Made by a program: the position numbers and the translations under genes. Positions 9,471-63,923 of a DNA stretch of 64,000 nt are shown one piece after another. Source of the stretch: Squalus acanthias (lineage: Eukaryota); the NCBI GenBank assembly GCA_030390025.1, contig CM059432.1, positions 1,054,001 to 1,118,000 of the forward strand, read 5' to 3'. The notes under the pieces were generated by a model. It did no database searches, was not told the DNA's origin, and saw nothing but the letters and a program-made list of their open reading frames with translations. Each line of letters starts with the position of its first letter. Position 1 is the stretch's first letter.

Positions 9471-9554
9471 AACACTAATATGATATTTTCATCAGCTAGG
9501 CTAACAGGTGTTTGCAATAACAATTGAACTTTGGTTATTTCTTCTCTTTCACAG

Positions 9555-9694
9555 TAAGAAATTTGACTGATACCCTACCGGGCCTTGTCCAGAAGCTAAA
9601 GGATTTAAGCCAAATCCAACCTGTCAATAACATCTCCAAAAATATAGACCGAATCAGAGAGCTCATTGATCAGGCCAGGGAAGCTGCAAATAAG
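9555..9694 (+). CDS. LAMA3: Laminin alpha exon 7 (end of coiled coil)
   Basis: ttcacag|...|gtttgt; 140 nt, phase 1/0; VRNLTDTLPGLVQKL...NIDRIRELIDQAREAANK. Confidence 0.93.
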
Positions 9695-9758
9695 GTTTGT
9701 TTTTAAAACATTTTTAGCAACGTCAAAGACTTGTGGATTAAAATCTAGGGGATTGGAT

Positions 9759-10368: not shown

Positions 10369-10566
10369 ATAAATGTGGCAATGAAATTCAACGGTGATTC
10401 TGGTGTAGAAGTGCGTCTTCCTGACAGTCTAGACCCCTTAAAAGCTTACTCATCTCTACTGTTGTACCTGAAACGGCCAGATAAGGAACCATCCCGAGGA
10501 GACAATATCAGAGGGAAGCGACAGGATTCCAAAAACATGTTTGTTTTCTATCTAGGCAACAAGGAT
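10369..10566 (+). CDS. LAMA3: Laminin alpha exon 8 (LG1 start)
   Basis: ttgtag|...|gtaagt; 198 nt, phase 0/0; INVAMKFNGDSGVEVRLP...NMFVFYLGNKD. Confidence 0.94.
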
Positions 10567-10675
10567 GTAAGTATTCTTCATCCCTTGGTTAAAGGGACGT
10601 GGGCAAGTTACAAGGAGCAAAATGACTAAGTATGCCATCTTACATGTTGTACAAATTATTTCCCTTTGGTACCAG

Positions 10676-15446: not shown

Positions 15447-18400
15447 AGAAAGAACTTGCGCCTTTTGCAACCTCAGGACATCCCAAAGAACTTTGAATTG
15501 TAGTCACGGTTGTAATGTAGGAAACACGGCAGCCAACTTGTGCACAGTAAGCTCCCACAAACGGCAATGTATTAATGACCAGATAATCTGTATTTTAGTG
15601 ATGTTGGTTGAGGGGTAAATATTGGCCCAGGACACCGGGGAGAACAGATAAAGGGATGACAGGAATGGCAGGGCAGCTCAGTCTAGCGGAGTGCACATCC
15701 TGTGGCATGTGGAAAGTCATGGACGCTTAGCGTTGCATGGATGACTACATGTAGAGTAAGTGTCAGCAGCTGCGACGAATCGCGCGACGATTTACGGAGC
15801 TTGAGCGGCGACTGGAGTCACTGTGGTGCATCCGCGAGGCTGAGAACTTCGTGGATAGCACGTTTAGTGAGGTGGTCACCCCGCAGCCTAAGAGAGAGTG
15901 GACAGAGAGCAAGTGGGTGACCACCAGACAGAAGACCACCAGGCAGGCAATGCAGGAGGTTGGAGGGCATCTCGCTCTCCAACCGGTATTCTATTCTGAG
16001 TACTGGTGGGGGCGATGGTCCCTCTGAGGAGTGCAGTCAGACCCAAGTCCTCGGCACCATGGGTGGCTCCGCTGCATAAGTGGGGGGGGGGGAGGAAAAA
16101 TAGTGGAAGAGCAATAATGGTAGGGGATTCAATAGTGAGGGAAGCAGACAGGTGTTTCTGCGGCCGCAGACGATGACTCCAGGATGGTATGTTGCCTCCC
16201 TGGTGCCAGGGTCAAGAATGTCACTGAACGGCTGCAGAGCATTCTGGGGGGAGAGGGTTAACAACCAGATGTCGTGGTCCATATCGGTACCAATGACATA
16301 GGTAGAAAGAGGGATGAAGTCCTGCAGGCAGAGTTTAGGGAGCTAGGAATCAGATTAAAAAACAGGACCTCAAAGGTAGTAATCTCCGATTACTCCCGGT
16401 GCCACGTGCTAGTGAGTCCAGAAATAGGAGGCTAGAGCAGATGAATGCGTGGTTGGAAGGATGGTGCAGGAGGGAGGGCTTTAGATTCCTGAAGCATTGG
16501 GACTGTTTCTGGGGGAGGTGGGACCTGTACAAGACGGACGGGTTGTACCTGAACAGAGCTGGGACCAATCTCCTCGCAGGGGGGTTTGCTAGTGCTGTTG
16601 GGGAGGGTTTAAACTAGCTTGGCAGGGGGATGGGAACCTAAGAATAGAGTCAGTAGGGAAGGAAGAAAAACTGGAATTGGAAAACATAAACGTAGAAAGT
16701 AAATTGGAAGGACAGAGGAATCAAGGGCTAGATAGTAGTCAGCAAGGAGGTTTGCCTGTACTAAATGGTATATACTTCAATGCAAGGAGTATAGCGAACA
16801 AGGCAGATGAGCTGAGGGCACAGGTAGATACTTGGGACTATGATATTATAGCTATTACAGAGACGTGGCTGAAAGAGGGGCAGGTATGGCAGCTCAACAT
16901 TCCTGGTTACAGGATTTTCAGACGGGATAGAGAGGGAGGTGAAAAGGGAGTGGGGGGGGGGGGTCGTGGCATTGATTAAAGAAACTATTACAGCTCTGAG
17001 GAGGGATGATATGTTGGAGGGATCATCAAACGAGGCCAATATGGGTTGAATTGAAAAACAAAAAAGAGGCGATCACACTGCTGGGAGTGTACTATAGACC
17101 CCCAAACAGTGAGAGGGAGATGGAAGAGCAAATATGCAGACAAATTTCTGAGAAGTGCAAAAACTATAGGGCAGTAATAGTAGGGGATTTCAACTACCCC
17201 AATATTAACTGGGATAAAATTAGTGTGAAGGGTATACAGGGTGCGGAATTCCTAAAATGCATCCAGGAGAACTTTTTTAGCCAGTATGTAGCAAGCCCAA
17301 CAAGGGAGGGGGCGGTTCTGGACTTAGTTTTAGGGAATGAAGCTGGGCAGGTAGAAGGTGTATCAGTGGGGGAGCATTTTGGTACTAGTGACCATAATTC
17401 AATTAGATTTAGGATAGTTATGGAAAAGGACAAGGATAGACCAGGAATAAAAATTCTAAATTGGGGAAAAGCAAATTTTGCTAAGCTCAGAGGGGATTTA
17501 GCCATAATGGACTGGAAACAGCTACTTGAAGGTAAATCAGTGTCAGAGCAGTGGGAGGCATTCAAGGAGGAGATCCGGAGGGTTCAGACCAAATATGTGC
17601 CCTTAAAGAAAAAAGGTGGGACTAACAAATCTAGAGCCCCCTGGATGTCTAGAGACATACAGGGTAGGATAAAGAAAAAAAGGGAGGCGTATGAGAGATA
17701 CCGAGGGCTAAATACTGCAGAATCTTTAGAGGAGTACAGAAAGTGCAGGGGTGCAATTAAAAAGGATATTAGGAAAGCAAAGAGAGAGCATGAAAAATTC
17801 TTGGCAAGTAAAATCAAGGAAAACCCAAAGATGTTTTATAAATATATTAAGAGTAAGAGGATAACTAAAGAAAGGGTAGGGCCTATTAGAGATCATGAGG
17901 GTAATCTGTGGAGGCGGGAGACGTCGGTAGGGTTCTTAATGAATACTTTGCGTCTGTTTTTACAAAGGAGAGGGGCGAAGCAGACATTGCTATCAGGGAG
18001 GAGGAGTGTGAAATATTAGATGAAATAAACATAGTGAGAGAGGAAGTATTAAGGGGTTTAGCAGCTTTAAAAGTGGATAATCCCCAGGCCCGGATGAAAT
18101 GTATCCCAGGCTGTTAAGCGAAGCAAAAGAGGAAATAGCAAAGGCCCTGACCATCATTTTTCAATCCTCTCTGGCTTCAGGTGTGGTGCCGGAGGACTGG
18201 AGGACTACTAATGTGGTACCCTTGTTTAAAAAGGGAGAAAAGGATAGACCGATTAATTACAGGCCAGTCAGCCTAACCTCGGTGGTTGGAAAATAATTGG
18301 AAAGAATTCTGAAGGACAGGATAAATCTTCATTTAGAAAGACACGGATTAATCAAGGATAGTCAGCACGGATTTGTTAAGGGAAGGTCGTGTCTGACAAA

Positions 18401-19872
18401 CTTGATTGAATTTTTTGAGGGGGTAACAAGGAGGGTAGATGAGGGTAGTGCGTTTGATGTAGTGTACATGGACCTTAGCAAGGCTTCTGATAAGGTTCCA
18501 CATGGCAGACTGGTCACGAAGTTAAAAGCCCATGGGATCCACAGCAAAGTGTCAAGTTGGATTCAAAACTGGCTCGGAGGCAGGAAGCAGAGGGTAATGG
18601 TTGATGGGTGTTTTTGTGACTGGAAGGCTGTTTCCAGTGGGGTTCCGCAGGGCTCAGTACTAGGTCCCTTGCTTTTTGTGGTACATATCAATGATCTAGA
18701 CTTGAATATAGTGGGTATGATTAAGAAGTTTGCAGATGATACTAAAATCGGCTGTGTGGTTAATACTGAAGAAGGAAGCTGTAGACTGCAGGAAGATATC
18801 AATAAATTGGTCAGGTGGGCAGAACAGTGGCAAATGGAATTCAATCCGGAGAAGTGTGAGGTAATGCATTTGGGGAGGGCTAACAAGGATAGGGAATACA
18901 CATTAAATGGTAGGACACTGAGTAGTGTAGAGGAACAAAGTGACCTTGGAGTGAATGTCCACAGATCCCTGAAGGTAGCAGGCCAGGTAAATAAGGTGGT
19001 TAAGAAGGCATACGGAATGCTTGCCTTTATTAGCCGTGGCATAGAATACAAGAGCAGGGGGGGTTATGCTTCAACTGTATAAAACACTAGTTAGGCCTCA
19101 GCTAGAGTACTGCGTGCAGTTCTGGTCACCACATTACAGGAAAGATGTGATTGCACTAGAGAGGGTACAGAGGAGATTTACAAGGATGTTGCCGGGAGCA
19201 GAGAATCTTAGCTATGAGGAAAGACTGGATAGGCTGGGTCTGTTTTCCTTGGAACAGAGGAGGCTGAGGGGAGACCTTATTGAGGTGTATAAAATTATGA
19301 GGGGCCCAGATAAAGTGGATAGAAAGGACCTATTTCCTTTGGCAGAGGGGTCAAAAACCAGGGGGCACAGATTTAAAGTAATTGGTGGAAGGTTTAGAGG
19401 GGATTTATGGGGAAATTTCTTCACCCAGAGGGTTGTGGGGGTCTGGAACTCACTGCCTGAAAGGGTGGTAGAGGCAGGAACCTTAACCACATTTAAAAAG
19501 TACTTGGATGTGCACTTGGGATGCTGTAACCTGCAGGGCTACGGACCTAGAGCTGGGAAGTGGGATTAGGCTGGATAGCTCTTTGTTGGCCGGCGCGGAC
19601 ACGGTGGGCCGAAATGGCCTCCTTCCGTGCTGTAACTTTGTATGATTCTATAACTTCCCTGCTCTTCTTCGAAATAGTGGCTGTGGGATTTTTTATGTCC
19701 ACCTGAGAGGGCAGACGGGTCCTCAGTTTAGCAGCACCTCCGACAGAACAACACTTACTCAGTACTGGCACTGGGAGTGTCAGCCTAGATTATGTGTTTA
19801 AGTCTCTGGAGCGGGACTTGAATTCACAATCTTCTGTCTCAGAGGTGAGAGTGCTATCCACTGAGCCACACC
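15447..19872 (-). mobile_element. Deu-type SINE split by the CR1 insertion (15447..15645 + 19652..19872)
   Basis: SINE sequence GGACACCGGGGAGAAC continues as AACTTCCCTGCTCTTCTTCGAAATAG after the CR1. Confidence 0.8.
15646..19651 (+). mobile_element. Near-full-length decayed CR1 LINE (ORF1 with Cys motif, coiled coil and SGNH esterase; ORF2 APE + RT)
   Basis: ORF1 from ATG 15665 (MAGQLSLAECTSCGMW...; HIGTND; DGLYLN) to 16617. ORF2 motifs [46 protein letters not shown], ending at 19569; several frameshifts and stops; CR1-type tail. Confidence 0.93.
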
Positions 19873-21044: not shown

Positions 21045-22955
21045 GTAAAAAATACTCCACTGTTTCTGTTTCTTATAGAATTATAGATGTTTACGTCGCA
21101 GAAGGAGGCCATTCAGCCCATCGTGTCTGTGCCGGCCGAAAAAGAGCTATCCAGCCTAATCCCATTTTCCAGCTCTTGGTCCGTAGCCCTGTAGCTTACG
21201 GCTCTTCAAGTGCATATCCAAGTACTTTTTAAATGTGATGAGGGTTTCTGCCTCTACCACCCTTTCAGGTCATATAATCATAGAATGGTTACAGACCCCC
21301 ACCAAACCTCTGGGTGAAAAAAGTTCTCCTCAACTCCCCTCTAATCCTTCTACCAATTACTTTAAATTCAGTTTTTATAAGGTAAGGTGAAAATGTCAAA
21401 ATAATACTCAAGTCCCTCAGTGCTACCACTTATTTGGCCCTCCTGGGTACTGGTACACCTAGAAGTGCATAGGTCTGTCATGTCCCATTACTCCACCTGT
21501 CACACTGTGATAGCATTGTGAATTTACCCCAATATGTGCCAACTCCTCTGTTGCTGTTTCGGAAACTGCTACACCATACCCCAGTGTCTGGATGAAAGGG
21601 TGGGAGATAATCTGTCACTGCGCTCCTGGCAACTTCACTCAATGCCCAATAACTGCGAGACGTGCACTTGCTCAGCTGATGGGCAGGTTTCGGTAATCTG
21701 TCTGCTTGGATGGAGCGGTTCATCGATGCCCCAATACGCTGGTCTCAGTGCGGCAACAAAGGCATGGGGAGAAGCTATTTACTGGCCTAGAAAGTCAGCC
21801 GGGCGGCACTCATTTTTCAGGTGAGGTGGTGCTCGTGCACATTTTTGAACGGAAGTGCACCGCCCGCCATATTGGGAAAGGAAAAGGAAATGTTTTGCGG
21901 TGCCCACACCTGAAACAGGCGTTGGACCCTTTTGCATCTGGAAATAAGGGGCCTAACATCAGGCTGAGGCCAAAAAACAGACCCTGGACCGCCTCCTACC
22001 AAAAGAAGGTACATTTTCAAAACTTACTAGCTGTTGGATCAACTGTTAGTCAGCCTCTTTCCTTCCATGTTTCGCAATGACACCCTTCGAGTAAGCACAA
22101 GACACTTGTTGGCGGAGTCTGCAGAACAGACTTAATTCACATACAGCACGGGTGATCAATCTACACCTTACACAGAGAGAGTAGCTTTGCGATTTCTCTA
22201 TCTTTCGAGCCCTCCAGCTAACTGTTGAAAACCATGCTTCTTTACACACCTTAGTTTACCCACCTCAAAGGTACAGGTCACAGATCAGACCTCATGATTT
22301 ATCTGTTCCTGAAGTCCTTGAGGACCGTCTATTTACATGAACAGCTGTAGTTCTTTACTTCAAAGGTACTTCCCTCAAACAAGAGTTCCTGACCTACCTG
22401 TTCATCGAATCCTTTAAGCAGTTTTATTAACAGCTTATCTTCCTAAACATCCCTTCTATACTATAGTTAATTGATCCCTCTGCCTATGTTTATTACACTA
22501 ACCACTAAAGTTATACTTTAATCACTCATGGTTGATGTCGTCCCAGTCACTTATTTCCTTGCACAGCATCTCTCGTAGATACTCAAACATTTGGAGCAGA
22601 AGATAAGACGTGGTTTCTCTGCGGCAACCCCGCTGCAATCCTGTTCACCTCGGAAAGCCGGTTGCTCCAAGATACAAGGAAGTTTGATTATTAACCCTTA
22701 ACTCTCTAGGATGTCCAACATATAACCTGAATTTTGGAGCTGGGAGGAGCAGATTTAAAGAATACGAGCCGCCAATCCCAACATCCCGCACTCATCACCG
22801 CTGCACCCTTCCCCCGATCACCGGCCTCCGATCCCTTCCCCCGACCTCCAATACCCCTCCCCCCACCCCACCCAATCACCGGCCTCTGCTCCCGTCCTCG
22901 GATACACCTCATCCCCACCCCCTCCACCCCTCCCCCGATCCCCACCCCCCTCCAC

Positions 22956-23222
22956 GATCCCCGGCCTCTGACACCCCTCCCCCGATCCCCGGCCTCTGAC
23001 ACCCCTCCCCCGATCCCCGGCCTCTGACACCCCTCCCCCGATCCCTGGCCTCTGACACCCCTCCCCCGATCCCCGGCCTCTGACACCCCTCCCCCGATCC
23101 CCGGCCTCTGACACCCCTCCCCCGATCCTCGGCCTCTGATACCCCTCCCCCGATCCCCGGCCTCTGACACCCCTCCCTCGATCCCCGGCCTCTGACACCC
23201 CTCCTCCGATCCCCGGCCTCTG
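22956..23222. repeat. 28-bp C-rich minisatellite, ~9.5 copies
   Basis: Unit ATCCCCGGCCTCTGACACCCCTCCCCCG; degenerate copies from ~22810. Confidence 0.92.
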
Positions 23223-24153
23223 TTCCCATTACCGGGCATCTATCCCTTGATCTCTGGCCTCAACTCCACAGCCCCGGCCTCCAATCCCCCTCCCTGGCCC
23301 TCGTTGGCCTGAGGAATGCTGCGACACGAACAGATGCCAGATCTTGGTTTACTCTGGCTGGCTGTTCACGCCAGGCTGGCTCCATTGAAGTGAGGCCTGA
23401 GGCCCAATATTGGGGGCACCATTCAGACACTGGAAATGTAGCAATAATGTGCATGAGAGAACTTCTACCCCATGAAGTTTCAAACCTAGTCACTTGATTC
23501 CTATTAACAAAATAATTTGATGGATGACAAATTACAGTGCATGTAATGCATGTTTAGCTTCTCAGGGTTAATGTTGGAGCACTGATCATATACTACATGT
23601 GTTTTTTATGCTTGTTGATCTTAGTGTTTGTTCAGCCACTAACCACAATTGATGTCATTCCTTCATGACTATTCCAATGCTCTCCTGGCCGGCCTTCCAA
23701 TTTCCACCCTCCGTAAACTTGAATTCATCCAGAACTCTTAATGCCTGTATCCTAACTACATTGGCACCTGGTCCAGCAACACCTCAATTTTAAAATTCTC
23801 ATCCTAGTTTTCAAATCCATCCTTGGCCTCACCCCTCCATATCTCTGTAATCTTCTCCAGCCCCACAACCCTGTGAGATCTCTGCGCTCCTCCAATTCTG
23901 GCCTTCTGCACATCCACTGTTGGCGGCCGTGCCTTCAGCTGCCTGGGTCCTAAGTTCTGGAATTCCCTCCCTGAACCTCTCCGCCTCTCTCTCCTCCTTT
24001 AAGACTCTCCTTAAAACCTACCTCTTTGACCAAGCGCTTGGTCACCTGTCCTAATATCTCCTTTTGTGGCTCAGTGTCAAATTTTATTTGATAACGCTCC
24101 TGTGAAGCGCCTTGGGACGTTTTACTACATTAAAGGCACTATATAAACGCAAA

Positions 24154-24569
24154 ATAAAAACAGAAAAAGCTGGAAACACTCAGCAGGTCAGGCAGCATCA
24201 GTAGAGAGAGAAACAGAGTCAACGTTTCAGGTCGATGACCTTTCGTCAGAACTTAGGGATGTGGCTGTGAAAGTGAGTTTAGGCAGATATCTGATCAAAC
24301 ATGAGACGGGGAATAGAAAGCAATGAAGATGAACAAGGTAAAAGAGACGAACAGAAATCCCGTCAGAGAGAAGAGCAGAACTTCTTCAAGGTGGGCATTC
24401 CTGGAAGAGAAGTGGCAGTGAATTAAACACTAATACAAAAGCAAAACACTGCGGATGCTGAAAATCTTAAATAGAAACAGAAAATGCTGGAAATACTCGG
24501 CAGGTCAGGCAGCATCAGTGGAGAGAGAAACAGAGTCAACGTTTCAGGTCGATGACCTTTCATCAGAAC
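24154..24569 (-). mobile_element. Penelope-like element derivative with two tandem terminal repeats
   Basis: Two ~100-bp direct repeats ACAGAAAA(T/A)GCTGGAAA...CAGAACT, matching the terminus of the GIY-YIG-bearing fragment at 63477; 12-bp TSD tataaa(c/t)gcaaa inside an L2 tail. Confidence 0.75.
24217..24253 (-). ncRNA. Minimal type I hammerhead ribozyme motif (copy A)
   Basis: Minus strand AGUU-CUGACGA-A-AGGUC AUC GACCU-GAAAC-GUU-GACU. Confidence 0.7.
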
Positions 24570-24570
24570 T
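24534..24570 (-). ncRNA. Minimal type I hammerhead ribozyme motif (copy B)
   Basis: Minus strand AGUU-CUGAUGA-A-AGGUC AUC GACCU-GAAAC-GUU-GACU. Confidence 0.72.
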
Positions 24571-24648
24571 ATAAATGCAAATTGTTGTTGTTGCTGTTCA
24601 AACATATTATAGGTTGTGGTTTATAACCAGATTCATTGTTTGTTCCAG

Positions 24649-24768
24649 AATACAAGCGTTGCTCTAACCATTGAGGATGGAAAGTTGGTCTTCAGATATG
24701 ACCTCCGATCAAATTCACCCAAGTTTGTAGAATCAAAGAATCGAATCGATACCACCAAGGAGAATGTG
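24649..24768 (+). CDS. LAMA3: Laminin alpha exon 13 (LG2)
   Basis: tgttccag|...|gtaaat; 120 nt, phase 0/0; NTSVALTIEDGKLVFRYDL...TTKENV. Confidence 0.9.
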
Positions 24769-24923
24769 GTAAATTATATTTTATTGTTGATTTTCTTTTG
24801 AACAAACGGGTAAAATAGAAATACTCGATTAAATTAAATTTCTTTGTTTTGCGAATATATTACAGACACAAAAACCCGAGTAAAAAATTGATATGATATT
24901 TGCTGATTCCTTTGGCATACAGT

Positions 24924-25067
24924 CAGTGTTCCCTTTAATTTTTTTTTTGGGTGCACAGCCCATTCAAAATACCGCGCATGCGGGATTTTTCCCATTTAAA
25001 AGCCGGTGAGCCGGTTGCGCAGGATCTCCAGAGCGCTGCGCAGCCGCACAGCTTAAAGGGAACATTG
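24924..25067. mobile_element. hAT-type MITE, ~140-bp family
   Basis: TIRs CAGTGTTCCC / GGGAACATTG; perfect 8-bp TSD CATACAGT. Confidence 0.8.
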
Positions 25068-39825: not shown

Positions 39826-40748
39826 GTAAAAATGTGTGGTGGTTGTTGTTATTTTACTTATATGTCTACTGCTATGAATGTTTTCAGAACATCTGTCACA
39901 TTTCAGCTATCACACACTTCTGATGTCACACTGCCAAGTGCCAAAAGTATTTAAAAGGAAGTTTTTAAAAATTCATTCACGGGATGTGGGCGTCGCTGGC
40001 AAGGCCGGCATTTATTGCCCATCCCTAGTTGCCCTTGAGAAGGTGGTGGTGAGCCGCCGCCTTGAACCGCTGCAGTCCGTGTGGTGAAGGTGCTCCCACA
40101 GTGCTGTTAGGGAGAGAGTTGCAGGATTTTGACCCAGCGACGGTGAAGGAACGGCCGATATACTTCCAAGTCAGGATGGTGTGTGACTTGGAGGGGAACC
40201 TGGAGGTGGTGGTGTTCCCATGCGCCTGCTGCCCTTGTCCTTCTAGGTGGTAGAGGTCGCGGGTTTGGGAGGTGCTGCCGAAGAAGCCTTGGCGAGTTGC
40301 TACAGTGCATCTTGTAGATGGTACACACTCATCCAAGCAAGTGGAGAGTATTCCATCACACTCCTTACTTGTGCCTTGTAGGTGGTGGAAAGGCTTTGGG
40401 GAGTCAGGAGGTGGGTCACTCGCTGCAGAATACCCAGCCTCTGACCTGTTCTTGTTGCCACAGTATTTATGTGGCTGGTCCAGTTAAGTTTTTGTCAATG
40501 GTGACGCCCAGGATGTTGATGGTGGGGAATTCGGCGATGGTAATCCGTTGAATGTTAAGGGGAGGTGGCTAGACTCTCGCTGGTCATTGCCTGGCACCTG
40601 TCTGGTGCGAATGTTACTTGCCACTTATCAGCCCAAGTACATTGTGTATTGTGCAGTTTAGTGCTCGTGTTAGAAAACAGTGCACACAGCGAGCAACACC
40701 ACAAAAAGCACTTGAGTATATTTTAAATGTGACATTTACACATTTCAG

Positions 40749-40938
40749 GTCAAAGTTCTCCATCGATGTGCGAACTGTTGCAGTAGAAGGAACCATCTTT
40801 TATGTAGCAGATAAGTCGGAGAAATCCTACATGACGCTTTACGTTTTGAAAGGCCGTTTCTTTTTTTCCTTTGTTGTTGATGGGCAACAACTAAGAATTA
40901 AGAGCAAAGCGAAGCACAATGATGGGCAGTGGCATACA
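40749..40938 (+). CDS. LAMA3: Laminin alpha exon 21 (LG4)
   Basis: atttcag|...|gtaagt; 190 nt, phase 2/0; SKFSIDVRTVAVEGTIFYV...LRIKSKAKHNDGQWHT. Confidence 0.94.
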
Positions 40939-41980
40939 GTAAGTAAAGCAAACAACAGCTAGTAGCTGCAGCTATACGATTGTATATGAAAAAGGTACTT
41001 TTAGCAACCTGTACCTTTAGTTTATCTCGTCAGAATCCATTGCCTCTCCTCCTCATCTCTGCAACCTCCTCCAGCCCTACAATCTTCGGAGATCTCTGCG
41101 TTCCTCCAATTCTGGCCTCTTGCGCATCCACAATTTCCTTCTCTCCATCATTGGCGGCCGTACCTTTAGCTGCTCTGGCTCTGTACTCTGGAACTCCCTC
41201 GCTAAACCTTTCTTACCTCTCTCTCTCCTCCTTTAAGACGCTCCTTAAAACCTACCTCTTGCACCAAGCTTTTGGTCACCTGTCCTAATATCGCCTTATG
41301 TGGCTCGGTGTCAAAGTTTGTCTGATAATCGCTCCTGTGAAGCATCTTCGAATGTTTTACTACATCAAAGGTGCTATATAAATGCAGGTTGTTGTTTATG
41401 ATATTTTGACCACAGCAATACAGAAGGGAAATTGCAATGTTTATGCTGGACCACAAGAGATGAATAACTTATACTAATGCATAGGATGTGACTTGTACAT
41501 TGGATTCTGCACGAAATAAATTGGAAGGTTTCATAGAAATGAGAATTGTCAAAAGCACAGGGCTGAAGAAGGCCATTCGGCCCATCCAACAATCCTCCCC
41601 AACTGGAGTCATCTACTCTAATTCCATTTCCCTGCTCTTTGCTCCCACTCTTTAATATTTTTCTCTGAGTGTTTAATTTGCGCTTTAATGTCATGATTGA
41701 CTTCGTTTCAATAGGTATTTGTGGTAAAGCATCCCATACCCTAATTACCCTGTGCATTAAAAAAAACTCCAAATTCATCCAAGTTTTTGTTAATATTTCA
41801 CAATCCTGAATATGAAAAATTTCAAAAATTAGTGATGTAAAATTCGACTTGGGTTAAGAAATTCATACAGCAATACAATTTACAACACAGAAACCATTGA
41901 ATAAGTAAGTATTACTTCAAATTATGCTATAAATTCCTGTACTGATATCTGCATAATTTGTCAATTTTTTTTTTTAAAAG

Positions 41981-42133: not shown

Positions 42134-44037
42134 GTAATGTGAAATTTACAATTCTCATCCTTGTGTTCAGATCCCTCAGGGCTTTGCCCATCCCTATCTC
42201 TGTAACCCCCGACAGCCCTCTGAGATCGCTGCGCTCCTCCAATTCTGGCCTCTTGCGCAGCCTTGATTTCCTTCACCCCACCATTGGCGGCCGCGTCTTC
42301 AGCTGCCTGGGCCCCGAGCTCTGGAGTTCCCTCCCTAAACCTCTCTGGCTCTCTCTCCTCTTTAAGACGCTGCTTAAAATCTACCTCACTTGTCCTACTA
42401 TCTCCTTATGTGGTTCAGTGTCAAACTTTGTCTGATTATGCTCCTGTGGTCAGAAGGTTGTGGACTCAAGTCCCACTCCAGAGACTTGACCACAAAAATC
42501 TAGGCTGACACTCCCAGTGCAGTGCCGAGGGAGTGCTGCACTGTCAGAGGTGCCGTCTTTCGGATGAGACGTTAAACCGAGGCCCCGTCTGCTCTCTCAG
42601 GTTGACATAAAAGATCCCATGGCATTATTTTCGAAGAAGAGCAGGGGAGTTATCCCCGGTGTCCTGGCCAATATTTATCCCTCAATCAACATCACAAAAA
42701 CAGATTATCTGGTCATTAGGACATTGCTGTTTGTGGGACCTTGCAGTGCACAAATTGGCTGCCGCGTTTCCCACATTACAACAGTGACTCCACTTCAAAA
42801 AGTACTTCATTGGCTGTAAAGCGCTTTGGGCGTCCTGAGGTCATGAAAGGGGCTATATTATTGCAAGCCTTTCTTTTTTTCCTTTCTGTGAAGTGCTTTG
42901 GGACATTTTTACTACATTAAAGGCACTATATAAATGCAAGTGGTTGTAGGTCAGGTCCTAACTCAAGTTTCACCTGAGATTCGTGAGCCACTTACTAGGG
43001 AAGACTAGCTGAGCTTCCCATTATCTTCCTCGTGGTTTTTATCTTCGGAGGTGGGTTTAAACCAAATCTAAAGAGTCCCATCTACCCGTTACAGTGGGCG
43101 GAAGGCCACCCGAATCCATCAGGCACAAGTGTCCCCGCTGGATGCCAGTCTAGTATTGAGAGCCAGCGTCTAGTCTCCGCTCACCGGGGCTGTCTGAAGT
43201 GGTGCCCGAACCCAACCTTTCTCGCTCAGAGGCGGGAATGGCTATTTCTAGGACAAGATGAATATTCAGTCACAAAAACAGAAAATACTGGAGACACTCA
43301 GCAGGTCAAGCAGCATTAGTTATGTAGAGAGACTGGAGAAGCTGGGATTCTTCTTCTTAGAGCAGAGAAGATTAAGGGAGATTTAATAGAGGCGTTCAAA
43401 ATCATGAAGGGGTTTTGACAGAGTAAATAAGGAGAAAATGTTTCCACTGGCAGGAGGGTCGGTAACCAGAGGACACAGATTTAAGGTGATTGTCAAAAGA
43501 ATTAAGGGGGAGATGAAGCGAAGTTTTTTTTATGCAGCGAGTTGTTGTGATCTGGAACGCGCTGCCTGAAAGGGCGGTGGAAGCAGATTCAATCGTAACT
43601 TTCAATAGGGGATGAATAAATACTTGGAAAAGAAAGACTTGCAGGGCTACGGGGAAAGAGCAGGGGGAGTGGGACTAATTGGAGAGCTCTTTCAAAGAGC
43701 CGGCACAGGCACGATGGGCTGACTGGCCTCCTTGTGTGCTGTATGATTCTATGATCTGTGGAAAAAGGAAAAAGTTAAAGTTTCAGATTGATAACCTTTT
43801 GTCAGGACATTCTGTTCTCAATTATATAATATAAGGCATAGTGGTCTGTTGAATGAAGCCTGACTTATGTTGACCATAGCTTCTGGTCCATAAGGAAAAG
43901 AACTATAAATTGCTGTAAAGATTGAGGGCCTTGTCCGTTAAATAGGGTCCTCATTTAGGTTTAGTTGACAAATAACCCAAAAATCTCTCTTGTGATTGTA
44001 ATTTTATTCCATTAATAATCTTTTATTTGCCAAGCAG

Positions 44038-57400: not shown

Positions 57401-57529
57401 CAATGTTCCCCCCCTATGCGGGTGGTCCCGCGCAGGCCACTCACCAGCTGTTGCCGCTGGAAAAGATACCGCGCATGCGCGGCAAATTTAAAGGGACCGC
57501 GCACGGAAAAAAAATTAGAGGGAACATTG
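57401..57529. mobile_element. hAT-type MITE, ~140-bp family (opposite orientation)
   Basis: TIRs CAATGTTCCC / GGGAACATTG; flanks gtatctac / atgtctac (6/8). Confidence 0.65.
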
Positions 57530-60500
57530 ATGTCTACCCAAAGCACTAAAAAGTCTGTTCTCATTTCAGATACTGACAAAACTAAAGGGTTTTTCAGCAA
57601 TTTGTTTTTATTTTATATTTTCAGTATTTGCAGTTTTTCTCATTAAAACCCATATATGAATTCTAAGGATTTGTGGCAATCCACTTCATACAAATGTTAT
57701 ATAAACGCATTTGGAGCACAGTTTAGTTTCAATTCATTTCCACCCCCGTGCCCCCCCCCCTCAATTTTTCTTGAGTTTCAATGCTTTTCTATTTGAATCT
57801 TTAATGTTTTGATTGCATATTTCATCATGGGTCCTTGTCTGATATTTATACCTTGGGAACAACATGAGAAAGTGCATCACATCTCTGATAGAAAATACCA
57901 AGGGATTCACGTGATCACGTCAAGCTATAATTGCAGGATAATAACGTTAAAAAAAGGGGTTATCTAGTCATTTATCACATTGCTGTTTGTGGGACCTTGC
58001 TGTGCACAAATTGGCCGCCGTATTTCCTACAAGACAACTTGCAAGAGTCATTGCAAAAAACACTGAAATACTCACAATGTGAATGTTTTCAAGCTGTTCA
58101 TTCCTCTATTGCAGCTGCTCTGATGTCAATGGAATCACAAACAGCAACTGAAAATAAATTATTACAAAAATAAACAAAAACATCCACAAATTCATGCTCT
58201 AATGGCAAGAATGAACTCAATATATTGGAGGAGAGAGGGTTAACACCGAATATCGATTTTAACCCTACCCGCTCAGCAGAGGCTGGTGGCTGGGCAGTTA
58301 ATAATGATCAGGTTACTTACTTTACCAGCTCAGATCCCGACTACTTGAGATATTAACCCGCAGGGGGATGAGGCGCCCACCTAAAGCCACTTAAATCGAT
58401 GCAAATCGGGGTACCATTGTGCCGATAGGCCACTGCAATTTTAACTGGGGCCTGAGCGGGGAAACCGCAGCGTTCCTCCAGACCCCATAATGAAAGCTGT
58501 GGCCTCTTCTGCCCGCGCCCCCCACTCCCTCCCTACTCTCCTGGGAGATCCTCCTCCAAAACCCCCTCCCCTCCACCTTGGCCGCCCGATCTTCGCTTGC
58601 TGACATCGGCTCCGCACCTTCTTCAGGCCCACTCTGGGCGGGAAATAGGCCGGCAGCAATTAAGCACAGCTTGGCGGTTAAAATCGCCGTGGCTTTCCTG
58701 CTTTCTTCCGCCTCTGCCGGGCGCTGAAATCAACTGGCGGGAATCCCACTCCGGGTTAAAATCCGCCTCTAATTCTCTGTTTTAGCCAAACATCTAAGAA
58801 AGGAAAAAAGAACTTGCATTTCTCCAGCGCCTTTCACGGCCTCAGGACGTCCCAAAGTGTTTCACAGCCAATGAAGTACTTCCGAAGTGTAGTCAGTGTC
58901 GACTGGACATGCGACTGCTCAAGCATTATTGCCTAATTATAAGACCACCAAAACTTTATCAACAAAAATATCATACTTTTCAGGGTAACAAATTCAAAAA
59001 TTCTAGTTAACTTTCTATTTAGAATTCATAATAATGAAAGTTTTTTTTCTCTAAAGAATGCATACATAGCGGTTTAGTTTTATATTTGATTAACATTAAT
59101 GTTAGGAAAGACCCATATTCTTCACTAGTCAAAATTGAGCTCTCAGAACTGTCTCCAGGTGGTTAAAGTTTCGCTGACCCAAATTTTGCTTTCACACCGT
59201 GTAGCCACTTGGGGAAACTTGGAAGCCTTAACTTGTTTGTCTGCTGTTATGTCGCAGTTGTTAACCCATTTATTTTCAATGTGGTAACACCTCCGTAACA
59301 TCACCTGTTTCCGCCCTTGCCTCAGCTCATCCGCTGCTGAAACCCTCATCCATGCCTTTGTTAACTCTAGACTTGACTATTCCAACGCACTCCTGGCTGG
59401 CCTCCCACATTCTACTCTATGTAAACCTGAGTTCATCCAAAACTAGGCTGCCCGTGTCCTAACTCGCACCAAATCCCGTTTGCCCATCACCCCTGTGCTC
59501 GCTGACCTACATTGGCTCCCGGTTAAGCAGCGCCTCGATTTCAAAATTCTCATCCTTGTTTTCAAATCCCTCCATGGCCTCGCCCCTTCCTATCTCTGTA
59601 ATCTCCTTCAGCCCCACAACTCCCCCACCCCATCTCCCAGAGATATCTGCGCTCCTCTAATTCTGCCCTCTTGAGCATCCCTGATAATAATCACTTAACC
59701 ATTGGTGGCCGTGCCTTCTGTTGCCTGGGCCCGAAGCTCTGGAATTCCCTGCCTAAACCTCTCCGCCTCGTTACCTCTCTTACCTCCTTTAAGACGCTCC
59801 TTAAAACCTACCTCTTTGACCAAGCTTTTGGTCACCTGCCCTAATTTCTCCTTGTGTGGCTCGGTGTCAAATTTTTTGTCTTATAATACTCCTGTGAAGC
59901 GCCTTGGGATGTTTTACTACGTTAAAGGCACTATATAAATACAAGTTGTTGTTGTTGGTGGCACCTCCATTAAAATAGCAGACAGAAGAGTGTCATATGA
60001 CCATGTTAAGCATTCAACAACAACAACAACTTGTATGCATTCGTTAAAATGACAACCTAAATCCTAGGCTGATGTTTGGACGAAAATTTGGCTTCAGACC
60101 ATCCAAATTACATTAATGCAAAACTTTAGATGTGCATCTTCATTTATTCATGGTTCAGTGATGTTCGTGAGTTGTATGTTTTCTGTCACTCATGAAATAA
60201 ACAGAACATTACCTCAGCTCATTGTTTTTTGTGTGATATGTGTCTGATTCCCTTTTTATAATCAAGGGTAGGCTGATAATCAGTGGGTTGCACTCTCGCC
60301 TCTGAGTCAGAGGTCTTGGTTAAAGACTCACTCCAGAGACTTCAGCACAAAATCTAGGCTGACACTCCCAGTGCCAGTGCTGAGGGAGTGCTGCACTGCC
60401 GGAGGTGCTGTCTTTCGGATGAGACATTAAACCGAGGCCCCGTCTGCTCTCTCAGGTGGACGTAAAAGATCCCATGGTATTATTTCGAAGAAGAGCAGGG

Positions 60501-60755
60501 AAATTCTCCCCGGTGTCCTGGGCCAATATTTATCCCTCAACCAACACCTAAAAACCGATGATCTGGTCATTATCACATTGCTGTTTGTGGGAGCTTGCTG
60601 TGCGCAAATTGGTTGCTGTGTTTCCTGCATTACAACAGTGACTGCACTTCAAAAGTACTTAAGCAAAATACTGCGGATGCTGGAAATCTGAAATAAAAAC
60701 AGAAAATGCTGGAAATACTCAGTAGGTCAGGCAGCATCTGTAGAGAGAGAAACAA

Positions 60756-60792
60756 AGTTAACGTTTCAGGTCGATGACCCTTCATCAGAACT
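60756..60792 (-). ncRNA. Minimal hammerhead ribozyme motif (copy C)
   Basis: Minus strand AGUU-CUGAUGA-A-GGGUC AUC GACCU-GAAAC-GUU-AACU. Confidence 0.7.
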
Positions 60793-60860
60793 GGAAAAAG
60801 TTAAGAGATGTAACAGATTTTTAAGCAGGGGGCAGAGGAGGAAAGAACAAAAGGGAAGGT

Positions 60861-62210
60861 CATAGAGTCATAACGGCACAGGAGGCCATTCGGCCCATCG
60901 AGTCCGTGCCAGCTCTCTGTAGAGTAATCCAGTCAGTCCCATTCCCCCGCTCTATCCCCGTAGCCCTGCAAGTTTATTTCCCTCAAGTGCCTATCCAGTC
61001 TCCTTTTGAAAACACTGAGTGTCTCCGCTTCGACCACTTCCGTTGGCAGCGAGTTCCAGGTCCATCTCGCTGCGTAAAAAGGTTTTTCCTCACCTCCCCC
61101 CTGTATCTCTTGCCCAAAACCTTAAATCTGTGTCCCCTAGTCCTTGTACCATCAACTAGTGGGAACAGCCTTTCCCCGTCTAGCCTATCCAAACCCGTCA
61201 TAATCTTGTACACCTCTATCAAATCACCCCTCAACCTCCTTTGCTCTAATGAAAACAAATCCAGCTTCTCCAACCTGTCCTTGTAGCTAAGATCCCCCAT
61301 CCCCGGAACCATTCTGGTAAATCTCCTCTGCACCCTCTCAAGGGCCTTCACATCCTTCCTAAAGTGTGGTGACCAGAACTGGGCGCAATACTCCAGTTGT
61401 GGCCTAACCAGCGCTTTATAAAGGTTCAGCATAACTTCTTTACTTTTGTACTCAATACCTCTGTTTATGAAGCCCAAGATGCCATATGCTTTGCTAACCA
61501 CTCTCTCAATATGTCCCGCCACCTTCAGGGACCTATGCACATTAACTCCCAGGTCCCTCTGTCCCTGCACATTCTTTAAAACTGTGCCATTAAGTATATA
61601 TTGCCTCTCCCTGTTCCTTCGGCCAAAATGCATCACCTCACACTTCCCTGTATTAAATTCCATCTGCCACTTGTCTGCCCATTCTGCTAGCCTTTCTATG
61701 TCCTGTTGCAGTTGATTGGTATCATCCTCACTGTTTGCCACACCCCCAAGTTTGGTGTCATTGGCAAATTTAGAAATTCTACTCTGTATTCCAATATCCA
61801 GGTCATTTATATATATCAAAAAAAGCAGTGGCCCCAGCACTGACCCTTGGGGAACACCACTGTCTACCATCCTCCAGTCTGAAAAACAGCCATTTACCAC
61901 AACTCGCTGTTTTCTGTCTTTAAGCCAATTCCTTACCCAAGCTGCCACTGACCCACCTATTCCATGAACCTCAATTTTGTTAACCAGTCTTCTATGTGGT
62001 ACTTTGTCAAACGCCTTCCGAATATCCATGTAGACAACATCCATTACATTCCCTTCAACAATCCTCCCTGTTACTTCATCAAAAAATTCAATTAGATTAG
62101 TCAAACACGATCTGCCTTTTATAAATCCATGTTGGCTCTCCTTAGTTAGCTTAAACCTCTCCAAGTGCCCATTAATTTTTTCCTTGATTATTATTTCTAA
62201 AACTTTAATC
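60861..62210 (-). mobile_element. CR1 LINE 3' portion with long RT ORF
   Basis: ORF 60983..62212 (409 aa): [36 protein letters not shown]. Confidence 0.92.
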
Positions 62211-63476
62211 AAGGATAATCATGGAAGTCAGGAGAGATTAAAAGACAAAAGGGATGATGATGCAAGGCAAAAGGAGATGGTAATGGGACAAGTTAAGAAA
62301 CAAAAGATGACTCTAGATGAGGTGTAAATGGGAATGGCAGAATCATCAATAGTGCCAAGGGATCTTTTACATCTCATCCAAAAGACAATACCTCCGACAA
62401 TGCAGCACTCCCTCAACACTGCACTGGAGTGTCAGCCTAGCTTTATGTGTGCAAGTCCCTGGAGTGGGACTTGAACCCACAACCTTCTGATTCAGAGGCG
62501 AGTGTGCTACCAACTGAGCCACAGCTGATATGGGAGAATCTGGGAAGGTTGGGAACATAGAATCATAGAATGGTTACAGCACGGAAGGCCATTCAGCCCA
62601 TCAGGCCCGTGCTGACTCTCAGCTAGTCCCCCCCACTCCCCTGCCCTTTCCCCGTAGCCCTGCAATTTTATTTCCTTCAGATATTTATCCAACTCCCGTT
62701 TGAAAGATAAGATTGAGTCTGCCTCCACCACCCTCTCAGGCAGTGAATTCCAGATCCTAACCACTCGCTGCGTAAAAAAGCTTTTCCTCATGTCGCCTTT
62801 GGTTCTTTTGCCAATCACCTTAATTCTGTGTCCTCTGGTTCTCGACCCTTCTGCCAATGGGAACAGTTTCTCTCTATCTGCTCTGTCCAGACCCCTCATG
62901 ATTTTGAACACCTCTATCAACAACAGCAACAACAACTTGTATTTATATAGCGCCTTTAACGTAGTATAACGTCCCAAGGCGCTGCACAGGAGTATTTTAA
63001 GACAAAAAATTTGACAACGAGCCACACAAGGATAAATTAGGGCAGGTGACCAAAAGCTTGGTCAAAGAGGTAGGTTTTAAGGAGCGTCTTAAAGGAGAAG
63101 AAAGAGGTAGAGAGGTTAAGGGAGGGAATTCCAGAGCTTAGGGCCCAGGCAGCTAAAGACATGGCCACCAGCGGTGGAACGATTAAAATCGGGGATGCTC
63201 AAGAGGGCAGAATTGGAGGAGCGCAGAGATCTTGGAGGTGGATTGTGGGACTGGAGGAGGTTACAGAGATAGGGATGGGGGCGAGGCCATGGAGGGATGA
63301 GAATTTTGAAATCGGCAGATTGAGTCTGCCTCATTTCCAACATTACAACTGTGACTACACTCCACAAAAGTACTTCATTGGCTGTAAAGTGCTTTGAGAC
63401 GTCCGGTGGTTGTGAAAGGCGCCATATAAATGCAAGTCTTTCTTCCTTTCTTTTCTGCACTATCAAATCTGCTCTC

Positions 63477-63923
63477 AATCTTAAATAACAACAGAAAGTG
63501 CTGGAAACACTCAGCAGGTCAGACAGCATCGAGGAGAGGAGAAACAGAGTCAACGTTTCGGGTCGAACCCTTCATCAGAACTGGAAAAGGTTAGGGAAGA
63601 GAGATTTTTAAGCAGGGGCAGGGAGGAGGGAAGGAAAGAACAAAGGGAAGGTCTGTGATAGGATGAGATTGACTGGCAAAAGGGATGATGGTGCGAGGCA
63701 AAAGGAGAGGTAATGGGACAAGTTGAGAAACAAAAGATGGCTCTAGATGATGTGTGGATGATGATGGCAGCAACATTAACAGCTACCATGTGAGAAAACA
63801 AGAGAGAAAAAAAAAGGAAGAAATACAGGGTCCAATTTGTAGTCTGAAATTGTTGAACTCAATGTTGAGTCCAGAAGGCTGTAAAGCGCCTAATAGAAAG
63901 ATGAGGTGCTGTTCCTCGAGCTG
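63477..63923 (-). mobile_element. Penelope-like element 3' fragment (end of GIY-YIG endonuclease + terminal repeat)
   Basis: QLEEQHLIFLLGALQPSGLNIEFNNF peptide, typical of the Penelope GIY-YIG C-terminus, followed by the hammerhead-bearing terminus. Confidence 0.8.
63548..63582 (-). ncRNA. Minimal hammerhead ribozyme motif (copy D)
   Basis: Minus strand AGUU-CUGAUGA-A-GGGU UCG ACCC-GAAAC-GUU-GACU. Confidence 0.7.

Follow-up and report, generated by a model that had tools for sequence, protein, structure and literature searches.

The 64-kb window (the whole stretch of DNA that was analysed) carries a laminin alpha gene on the plus strand. An insertion of a Penelope-like element (PLE) lies within an intron of this gene on the opposite strand. 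It has a target-site duplication (TSD) on either side and interrupts a host repeat, which we take to be L2. The insertion consists of two terminal direct repeats (arms), each with a hammerhead motif, and a spacer that contains a leader and the decayed start of an open reading frame (ORF). Three further copies of the same family lie within the window. The features are as follows.

9521-50296, plus strand: laminin alpha chain gene, with exons for domain II and several LG modules
24142..24153: left copy of the TSD; its final 2 nt could equally belong to the element's 3' end
24152..24253, minus strand: 3' arm, hammerhead and 65 nt of downstream pseudo-LTR; ends where most family copies end
24217..24253 (read 24253-24217), minus strand: minimal type I hammerhead, 3' copy, predicted cut after 24221
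24254..24262, minus strand: putative junction, where the ORF merges into pseudo-LTR letters just upstream of the hammerhead, with 9 nt missing
24258..24398 (read 24398-24258), minus strand: decayed ORF start, first 47 codons with 2 stops, from translation and protein match
24399..24468, minus strand: leader, about 30 nt of further "tail"-like pseudo-LTR (shared with the 60661 copy) and 40 nt before the ATG
24469..24570, minus strand: 5' arm, hammerhead and downstream pseudo-LTR; the 5' end of the insertion is the first base of stem I
24534..24570 (read 24570-24534), minus strand: minimal type I hammerhead, 5' copy, predicted cut after 24538
24570..24581: right copy of the TSD, followed by the (GTT)n tail of the host repeat
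24649..24768, plus strand: laminin alpha exon with AG/GT borders, 67 nt downstream of the insertion and not part of the element
43274-43808, minus strand: degenerate family copy whose core is damaged and which is interrupted by about 430 nt of other repeat
60661-62352, minus strand: family copy with an intact hammerhead and a 30-nt tail, split by a LINE fragment
63477-63923, minus strand: 5'-truncated 3' end of a family copy, about 300 nt of repeat and a 30-codon frame ending LQPSGLNIEF

The host gene was recognized from nine laminin matches among 134 frames scanned; three further frames gave weak, unrelated matches. Among frames in unique stretches, the plus-strand frame at 9521-9703 matched Laminin domain II (E = 3e-14) and 40576-40959 matched Laminin G on the plus strand (E = 1e-9). 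Weaker plus-strand Laminin G matches were found at 10571, 24613, 34314, 37017, 41978, and 50036, and the nine include one at 10369. The exon next to the insertion (24649-24768) had a weak Laminin G match in Pfam that fell under the cut-off (E = 0.007). It was covered in the probable RNA run X15 (depth 11.3), with the following intron uncovered. Transcribed from the minus strand, the hammerheads are the reverse complement of the laminin pre-mRNA and cannot cut it. All four hammerhead-bearing insertions (24152-24570, 43274-43808, 60661-62352, and 63477-63923) are antisense to the laminin gene, which was traced as far as 50.3 kb; the number is too small for a test. Other repeats in the window include a 144-bp MITE-like element with 15-nt inverted ends at 24924-25067 (a similar end lies near 57490-57531), a broken LINE with endonuclease and RT frames at 16593-19566 on the plus strand, and a GC-rich minisatellite with a period of about 27 nt at ~22700-23230. 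Long overlapping stop-free frames at 33.1-33.9, 45.3-46.6, and 48.2-49.0 kb suggest further simple arrays.

Each arm opens, on the minus strand, with a 37-nt motif that comprises a 4-bp stem I, CUGANGA, one unpaired A, a stem II of 5 bp with a 3-nt loop, GAAAC, GUU, and the return of stem I. A 4-nt palindrome occupies the place of a would-be stem III between two copies of the motif. The original prediction had called two minus-strand hammerheads at 24217..24253 and 24534..24570, and the motif elements were found at exactly these positions; the predicted cuts after 24538 and 24221 reproduce the 317-nt spacing that it gave. The 26-nt core pattern matched at three places in the window (both arms and 60763-60788) and at none in 100 shuffles. 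Both motifs carry the type I core (CUGANGA ... GAAA ... NUH, with helices I and II), the unpaired base between 9 and 10.1, and the palindromic stem III segment. Neither arm has the G10.1-C11.1 pair, which is replaced by A-U; the 63.5 kb copy does have G-C at this place, and the 60.7 kb copy has G-U. A U-G pair lies beside the predicted cut site in both motifs of the insertion. The assignment to Penelope-type minimal hammerheads agrees with the features given in the available part of PMC4209133, except for the A-U opening of stem II.

Over the five window copies, 95% of 40 stem cells were paired and one pair was changed on both sides; covariation among these copies was not above that of shuffles (377/500). 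A scan with hammerhead models had been proposed as a check. Rfam returned no family at gathering score over the whole window, and none of the seven weak matches in 23800-25000 (E up to 10) was to a hammerhead model, a result that would be expected for a motif lacking stem III. When the 417-nt RNA was folded with a nested model, in which a dimer is not representable, stem I reached a probability of up to 0.04 and the inter-copy stem III one of about 0. DNA pattern scans gave no match in metagenome contigs, viral contigs, or prokaryote genomes, as expected for vertebrate DNA.

The two arms (24152-24253 and 24469-24570) are, as had been claimed, direct repeats. They are 102 nt long, 94% identical (differing at 6 of 102 sites), and 317 nt apart from start to start. 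They have two minority letters in common (24200/24517 and 24220/24537), which indicates that both derive from one source.

The TSD copies (24142-24153 and 24570-24581) are identical at 11 of 12 positions, cannot be extended, and enclose 416 bp, and the target site is AT-rich. A motif scan for the tail of the host repeat found 16 places; the 15 that are other copies each have the TSD motif once. Loose ends at 24152 continue directly into the (GTT)n tail in all four runs compared. The claim of one insertion with a TSD was borne out by the duplication, the 416 bp that it encloses, and the single motif in the other host-repeat copies. Two separate truncated PLE insertions lying side by side were considered, given that PLEs tend to target earlier copies or their neighbourhood (PMC6765202, available part) and that the family is dense in the window. 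We regard this as very unlikely: one TSD pair surrounds the whole, no inner TSD was found within the insertion, the arms share their two minority letters, and the letters at the internal junction resemble pseudo-LTR.

The insertion had been described as ORF-less. Reverse transcriptase (RT) and endonuclease sequences are indeed absent, but the statement that there is no ORF did not stand, as the spacer holds the decayed first 47 codons of one. HMMER was used to search the spacer frame against 1.84 billion proteins, giving 11 matches, with the full query covered only by P0003, a predicted protein of the horn shark, Heterodontus francisci, which marks the genome as shark-like. P0003 was the best match to the 47-residue frame (E = 6e-12), is identical at 34 of 47 residues (72%), and carries on in frame past the point where the spacer breaks off. 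The other 10 matches (multi-stretch, 33-48% identity) were set aside as likely compositional. Substitution of family-majority letters restored the P0003 residue at seven of the eight spacer sites tested, the first stop included. Longer protein relatives of the family were also sought, and none scored in word-based protein searches (21, 126, and 2 candidates); the ESM Atlas held no usable match for residues 73-153 of P0003, and Pfam none for P0001. In the horn-shark gene model, residues 73-153 of P0003 represent about 80 residues of the PLE family ORF start with sequence of other origin on both sides; a repeat that became an exon or an error of annotation may account for this.

The leader was delimited from the alignment of the 60661-60792 copy with 24439-24570, and steps in depth are also present. 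The ATG lies 139 nt past the 5' cut site. The decayed ORF start makes up 45% of the unit, retains about 145 nt of the ORF, and encodes nothing functional. The order of the element is thus hammerhead, leader, and ORF start, which is the layout of a 5' pseudo-LTR, followed directly by the second hammerhead end. In the likely reading, the two hammerheads lie close together only because the middle of the element is gone.

At the junction, 24254-24262 matched the two window copies at 7 of 9 and 8 of 10 positions, a level of which 7/9 is reached by random 9-mers in about 5% of trials, and matched the consensus of the family's loose ends at 8 of 9 when read by eye. Five of the junction letters are at the same time part of the final ORF codons. 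Together, this modest evidence suggests a short-homology join. None of the 32 contig pieces listed spanned the junction at 24254. An origin by back-splicing or aberrant splicing was considered in view of an acceptor-like CAG ahead of the hammerhead in longer copies, and was set aside since the junction letters fit the upstream pseudo-LTR.

The three further family copies differ in their state of preservation. The copy at 63477-63923 has a stem II of 4 bp that opens with G-C and shares minority letters with both arms. Its 30-residue frame at 63831-63920 (P0014), which we take to be the C-terminus of a PLE GIY-YIG endonuclease, had no match in Pfam, the ESM Atlas, or the protein search, and no search tied an RT or GIY-YIG domain to the family. 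The LINE fragment within the 60661-62352 copy holds an RT frame at 60986-62218 (RVT_1, E = 4e-25). A weak match at 57591-57638 lacks a hammerhead and was not counted as a family copy. The family shows traits of PLEs, namely variable 5' truncation, inverted junctions, an optional tail of 30-40 nt, and a TSD in an AT-rich target.

Abundance was investigated in four of the 24 runs listed, of which X1 and X6 (both over the counting limits) and X5 (read to about 55%) are DNA and X15 is probably RNA. Depth here is the summed contig depth relative to the single-copy flank and is not a copy number. In contigs of these three related DNA runs, the arms reached a depth of about 3e5 times that of the single-copy flank, and the hammerhead motif is plainly present there in very large numbers. 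Depth dropped about 10-fold just past 24460, the position equivalent to the 3' end of the insertion, which indicates that the insertion starts where copies of the family usually have their 3' end. Within the spacer, depth in flank units fell from bin 24358-24391 to bin 24256-24289, from 14,488 to 916 in X1 (~16-fold), from 37,876 to 1,181 in X5 (~32-fold), and from 35,577 to 1,418 in X6 (~25-fold). Such a gradient is expected if the place within the ORF start at which copies break off varies. Amplification of a 317-nt unit would instead raise depth evenly over the whole spacer.

These depths also bear on a low-copy, non-autonomous mini-PLE, which would be made from uncut linear RNA, keep its cis signals, and be moved in trans with the hammerheads as passengers. 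The depth of the junction-side bin is far over single copy, and the lowest spacer bin, still at about 900-1,400 flank units, leaves room for a small family. About 145 nt of the ORF is kept; the minimum template and proposed protein-binding region of the anole PLE is the first 172 nt (PMC11167929, available part), and non-autonomous PLE derivatives are known (PMC8557442, available part). Countering this are the graded spacer depth, the near-private letters of the spacer, and the lack of a second spacer copy within the window. The letters of the 24152-24570 copy at 24307 and 24311 made up 0.2-0.7% of depth, or 2-13 times the single-copy level; such letters may postdate the insertion and would then be compatible with sister copies. 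On balance, we consider a mini-PLE quite unlikely.

The original prediction had instead proposed that the unit is retrozyme-like and could set free a 317-nt RNA, possibly to be mobilised. In such a non-LTR retrozyme, a 317-nt circle would arise from double hammerhead cleavage and ligation and would be reverse-transcribed for 1.3 turns by a PLE RT. The geometry of one unit plus a 102-nt repeat fits the model of more-than-unit copying described in the available part of PMC4209133, the cores are intact, the stem III segments are palindromic, and the minority letters are common to both arms. A length of 317 nt is also within the range of animal retrozymes, with a mean of 363 bp in the one chondrichthyan sampled (bioRxiv 10.64898/2026.07.22.740005, available part). 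The insertion extends beyond the 317-nt cleavage product on both sides, by 33 nt upstream and by about 67 nt downstream. Its template was therefore either a linear RNA that had stayed uncut or a circle that was read for over one full turn. Copying of a circle would, however, have to halt no more than one or two bases from the junction inside that circle. The hammerhead 5' boundary appears to be a general stopping point among family copies: the 43.8 kb copy likewise begins at it (43808), and 2 of the 15 joints listed are opposite-strand joints at 24252/24253. A general stop at this boundary explains the matching ends without a circle, and it also softens the argument against a circle.

Expression and folding were examined for signs of such a circle. 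In X15, the spacer-to-arm depth ratio was 0.0031, compared with 0.0030-0.0039 in DNA, which is no enrichment of the spacer. The letters of the 24152-24570 copy had zero depth in X15 at six of the seven diagnostic sites, in what is a single run guessed to be RNA and available as contigs only, in which rare variants are dropped and from which poly(A) selection would lose circles. X15 also contains a depth-493 contig over 24317-24466 (record 16) with a 3-nt deletion, which represents the ORF start of another member; some copy is therefore highly transcribed. The predicted 317-nt circle folded at -48.6 kcal/mol, against -51.2 +/- 4.7 kcal/mol for shuffles, 74 of 100 of which folded at least as well (z = +0.54). 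Its paired fraction of 49% was like that of the shuffles, and the linear 419-nt fold gave z = +0.99. Published retrozyme circles are, by contrast, highly self-paired (PMC7229834, available part).

Further points weigh against a retrozyme. A tandem array is absent at the locus, and both motifs have A-U rather than the usual G-C at the base of stem II, with U-G beside the cut site. Among Xenopus dimers, one of nine cleaved in vitro (bioRxiv 10.64898/2026.07.22.740005, available part). We consider a retrozyme origin unlikely. A related reading is that the locus is the fossil of a retrozyme birth, in which an internally deleted PLE with only its hammerhead, RT start site, and first 145 nt of ORF (the likely signal for RT binding) gave a 317-nt circle that was copied 1.3 times. 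This is also improbable, at about the level of the retrozyme itself. If true, it would be direct evidence at the genome level that a circle can be reverse-transcribed for more than one unit, and would link the circle-based copying proposed for Penelope elements with an actual insertion. It would also reveal the cis signals on which a PLE-derived retrozyme depends and so delimit a minimal unit that can move.

The age of the insertion was assessed in related organisms. Organism B has a single-copy contig (record 32, depth 17.4) that starts in the unique flank, reaches 28 nt into the hammerhead, and differs from the window at 20 of 404 letters. With an empty site, 19 of 27 positions there would be different, and at most nine contig differences are unplaced in the tables listed. 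These differences are too few for an empty site, so this related species shares the insertion, which is therefore older than a split with an intron divergence of about 5%. The unique flank contigs of organism A break off at 24571 and are uninformative on the insertion. The insertion is old and probably inactive.

Taken together, the unit is likely a one-off deleted copy of an abundant PLE, inserted once and long ago, without its middle part and probably inactive. The proposed mobile 317-nt RNA was not supported: the spacer is the parent's leader and ORF start, its depth is graded, the letters of this copy are missing from X15 at most diagnostic sites, the circle is not unusually paired, and the copy is old and common to a second species. 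The favoured outcome is a one-off unit without similar copies or transcripts, which the original prediction had named as the finding that would speak against it.

The following course of events would account for the deleted PLE. The sequence shows that a single insertion into an AT-rich site left the 12-bp TSD and that the spacer is the family's ORF start. The element's own endonuclease and RT may have started target-primed reverse transcription at the normal tail site, on uncut RNA. The remainder of the ORF would then have dropped out where a few letters are common to both sides; a jump of the RT and a deletion from the DNA at a later time would look the same. Copying would have halted at the 5' edge of the upstream hammerhead, a boundary where further copies stop or change strand. 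PLEs typically show partial tandems, 5' truncation, and tails (PMC8557442), and a TSD-flanked PLE copy with a microhomology deletion is known (PMC3846280), as described in the available parts of these papers. A template of uncut RNA agrees with the one PLE examined in vitro, PAc of Anolis, for which the available part of PMC11167929 reports that uncut RNA is the main substrate, that the hammerhead is dispensable (mutants insert normally), that the RT starts internally, and that targets are AT-rich. Minimal hammerheads themselves have low activity, with none in the monomer and weak activity in the dimer (PMC4209133, available part).

As one of very many decayed Penelope-type ends, the locus in its likely reading matters little. 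It does illustrate that simple deletion can bring two hammerheads to within a few hundred bases of each other, a layout that pipelines based on tandem repeats may count as an active retrozyme.

The comparisons that follow refer to the available parts of the papers cited. Minimal hammerheads at PLE ends (2014), animal retrozymes (2020), and a PLE origin of the latter with one chondrichthyan (2026 preprint) are already in print. The family itself is undescribed in the literature covered on shark Penelope elements and hammerheads and on solo pseudo-LTRs and internal deletions, a scope that left out most subscription papers; the supplements of the 2026 preprint may list it. The motifs resemble the minimal hammerheads of PLEs (Cervera and De la Pena 2014, PMC4209133) in their type I fold, intact core, 4-bp helix I, unpaired base 9/10.1, palindromic 15.2/16.2, and lack of loop 3, and many dispersed solo copies occur in both. 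They differ in that helix II here has 5 bp and opens with A-U, where the published motifs have a conserved G-C, and in that the motifs here are direct and 317 nt apart with the ORF missing, compared with about 3 kb there.

The non-LTR retrozymes of animals (Cervera and De la Pena 2020, PMC7229834; Li et al., bioRxiv 10.64898/2026.07.22.740005) have in common with the locus a unit of about 300 nt, a GC content of 43%, two consecutive type I motifs, a TSD of >4 bp, and a PLE origin. In contrast, the locus has only 1.3 units, no array, and a minimal rather than a canonical motif. It is also not highly self-paired, contains a decayed ORF start, and shows no sign of sister copies nor, in the probable RNA run X15, of expression.

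Internally deleted and partial-tandem Penelope copies, such as a derivative of Pen2_Av in Adineta vaga (PMC3846280) and Poseidon PAc of Anolis carolinensis (PMC11167929), share with the locus a TSD, terminal repeats, a short-homology internal deletion, an AT-rich target, and 3' ends that are set by internal RT start sites, with an optional tail of 30-40 nt. The repeats are direct here and inverted in the Pen2 derivative. Most 3' ends of the present family fall upstream of the ATG, whereas those of PAc lie 111-118 nt inside the ORF. The extension of about 30 nt in the 60661 copy is likened to the optional tail of PLEs (PMC8557442).
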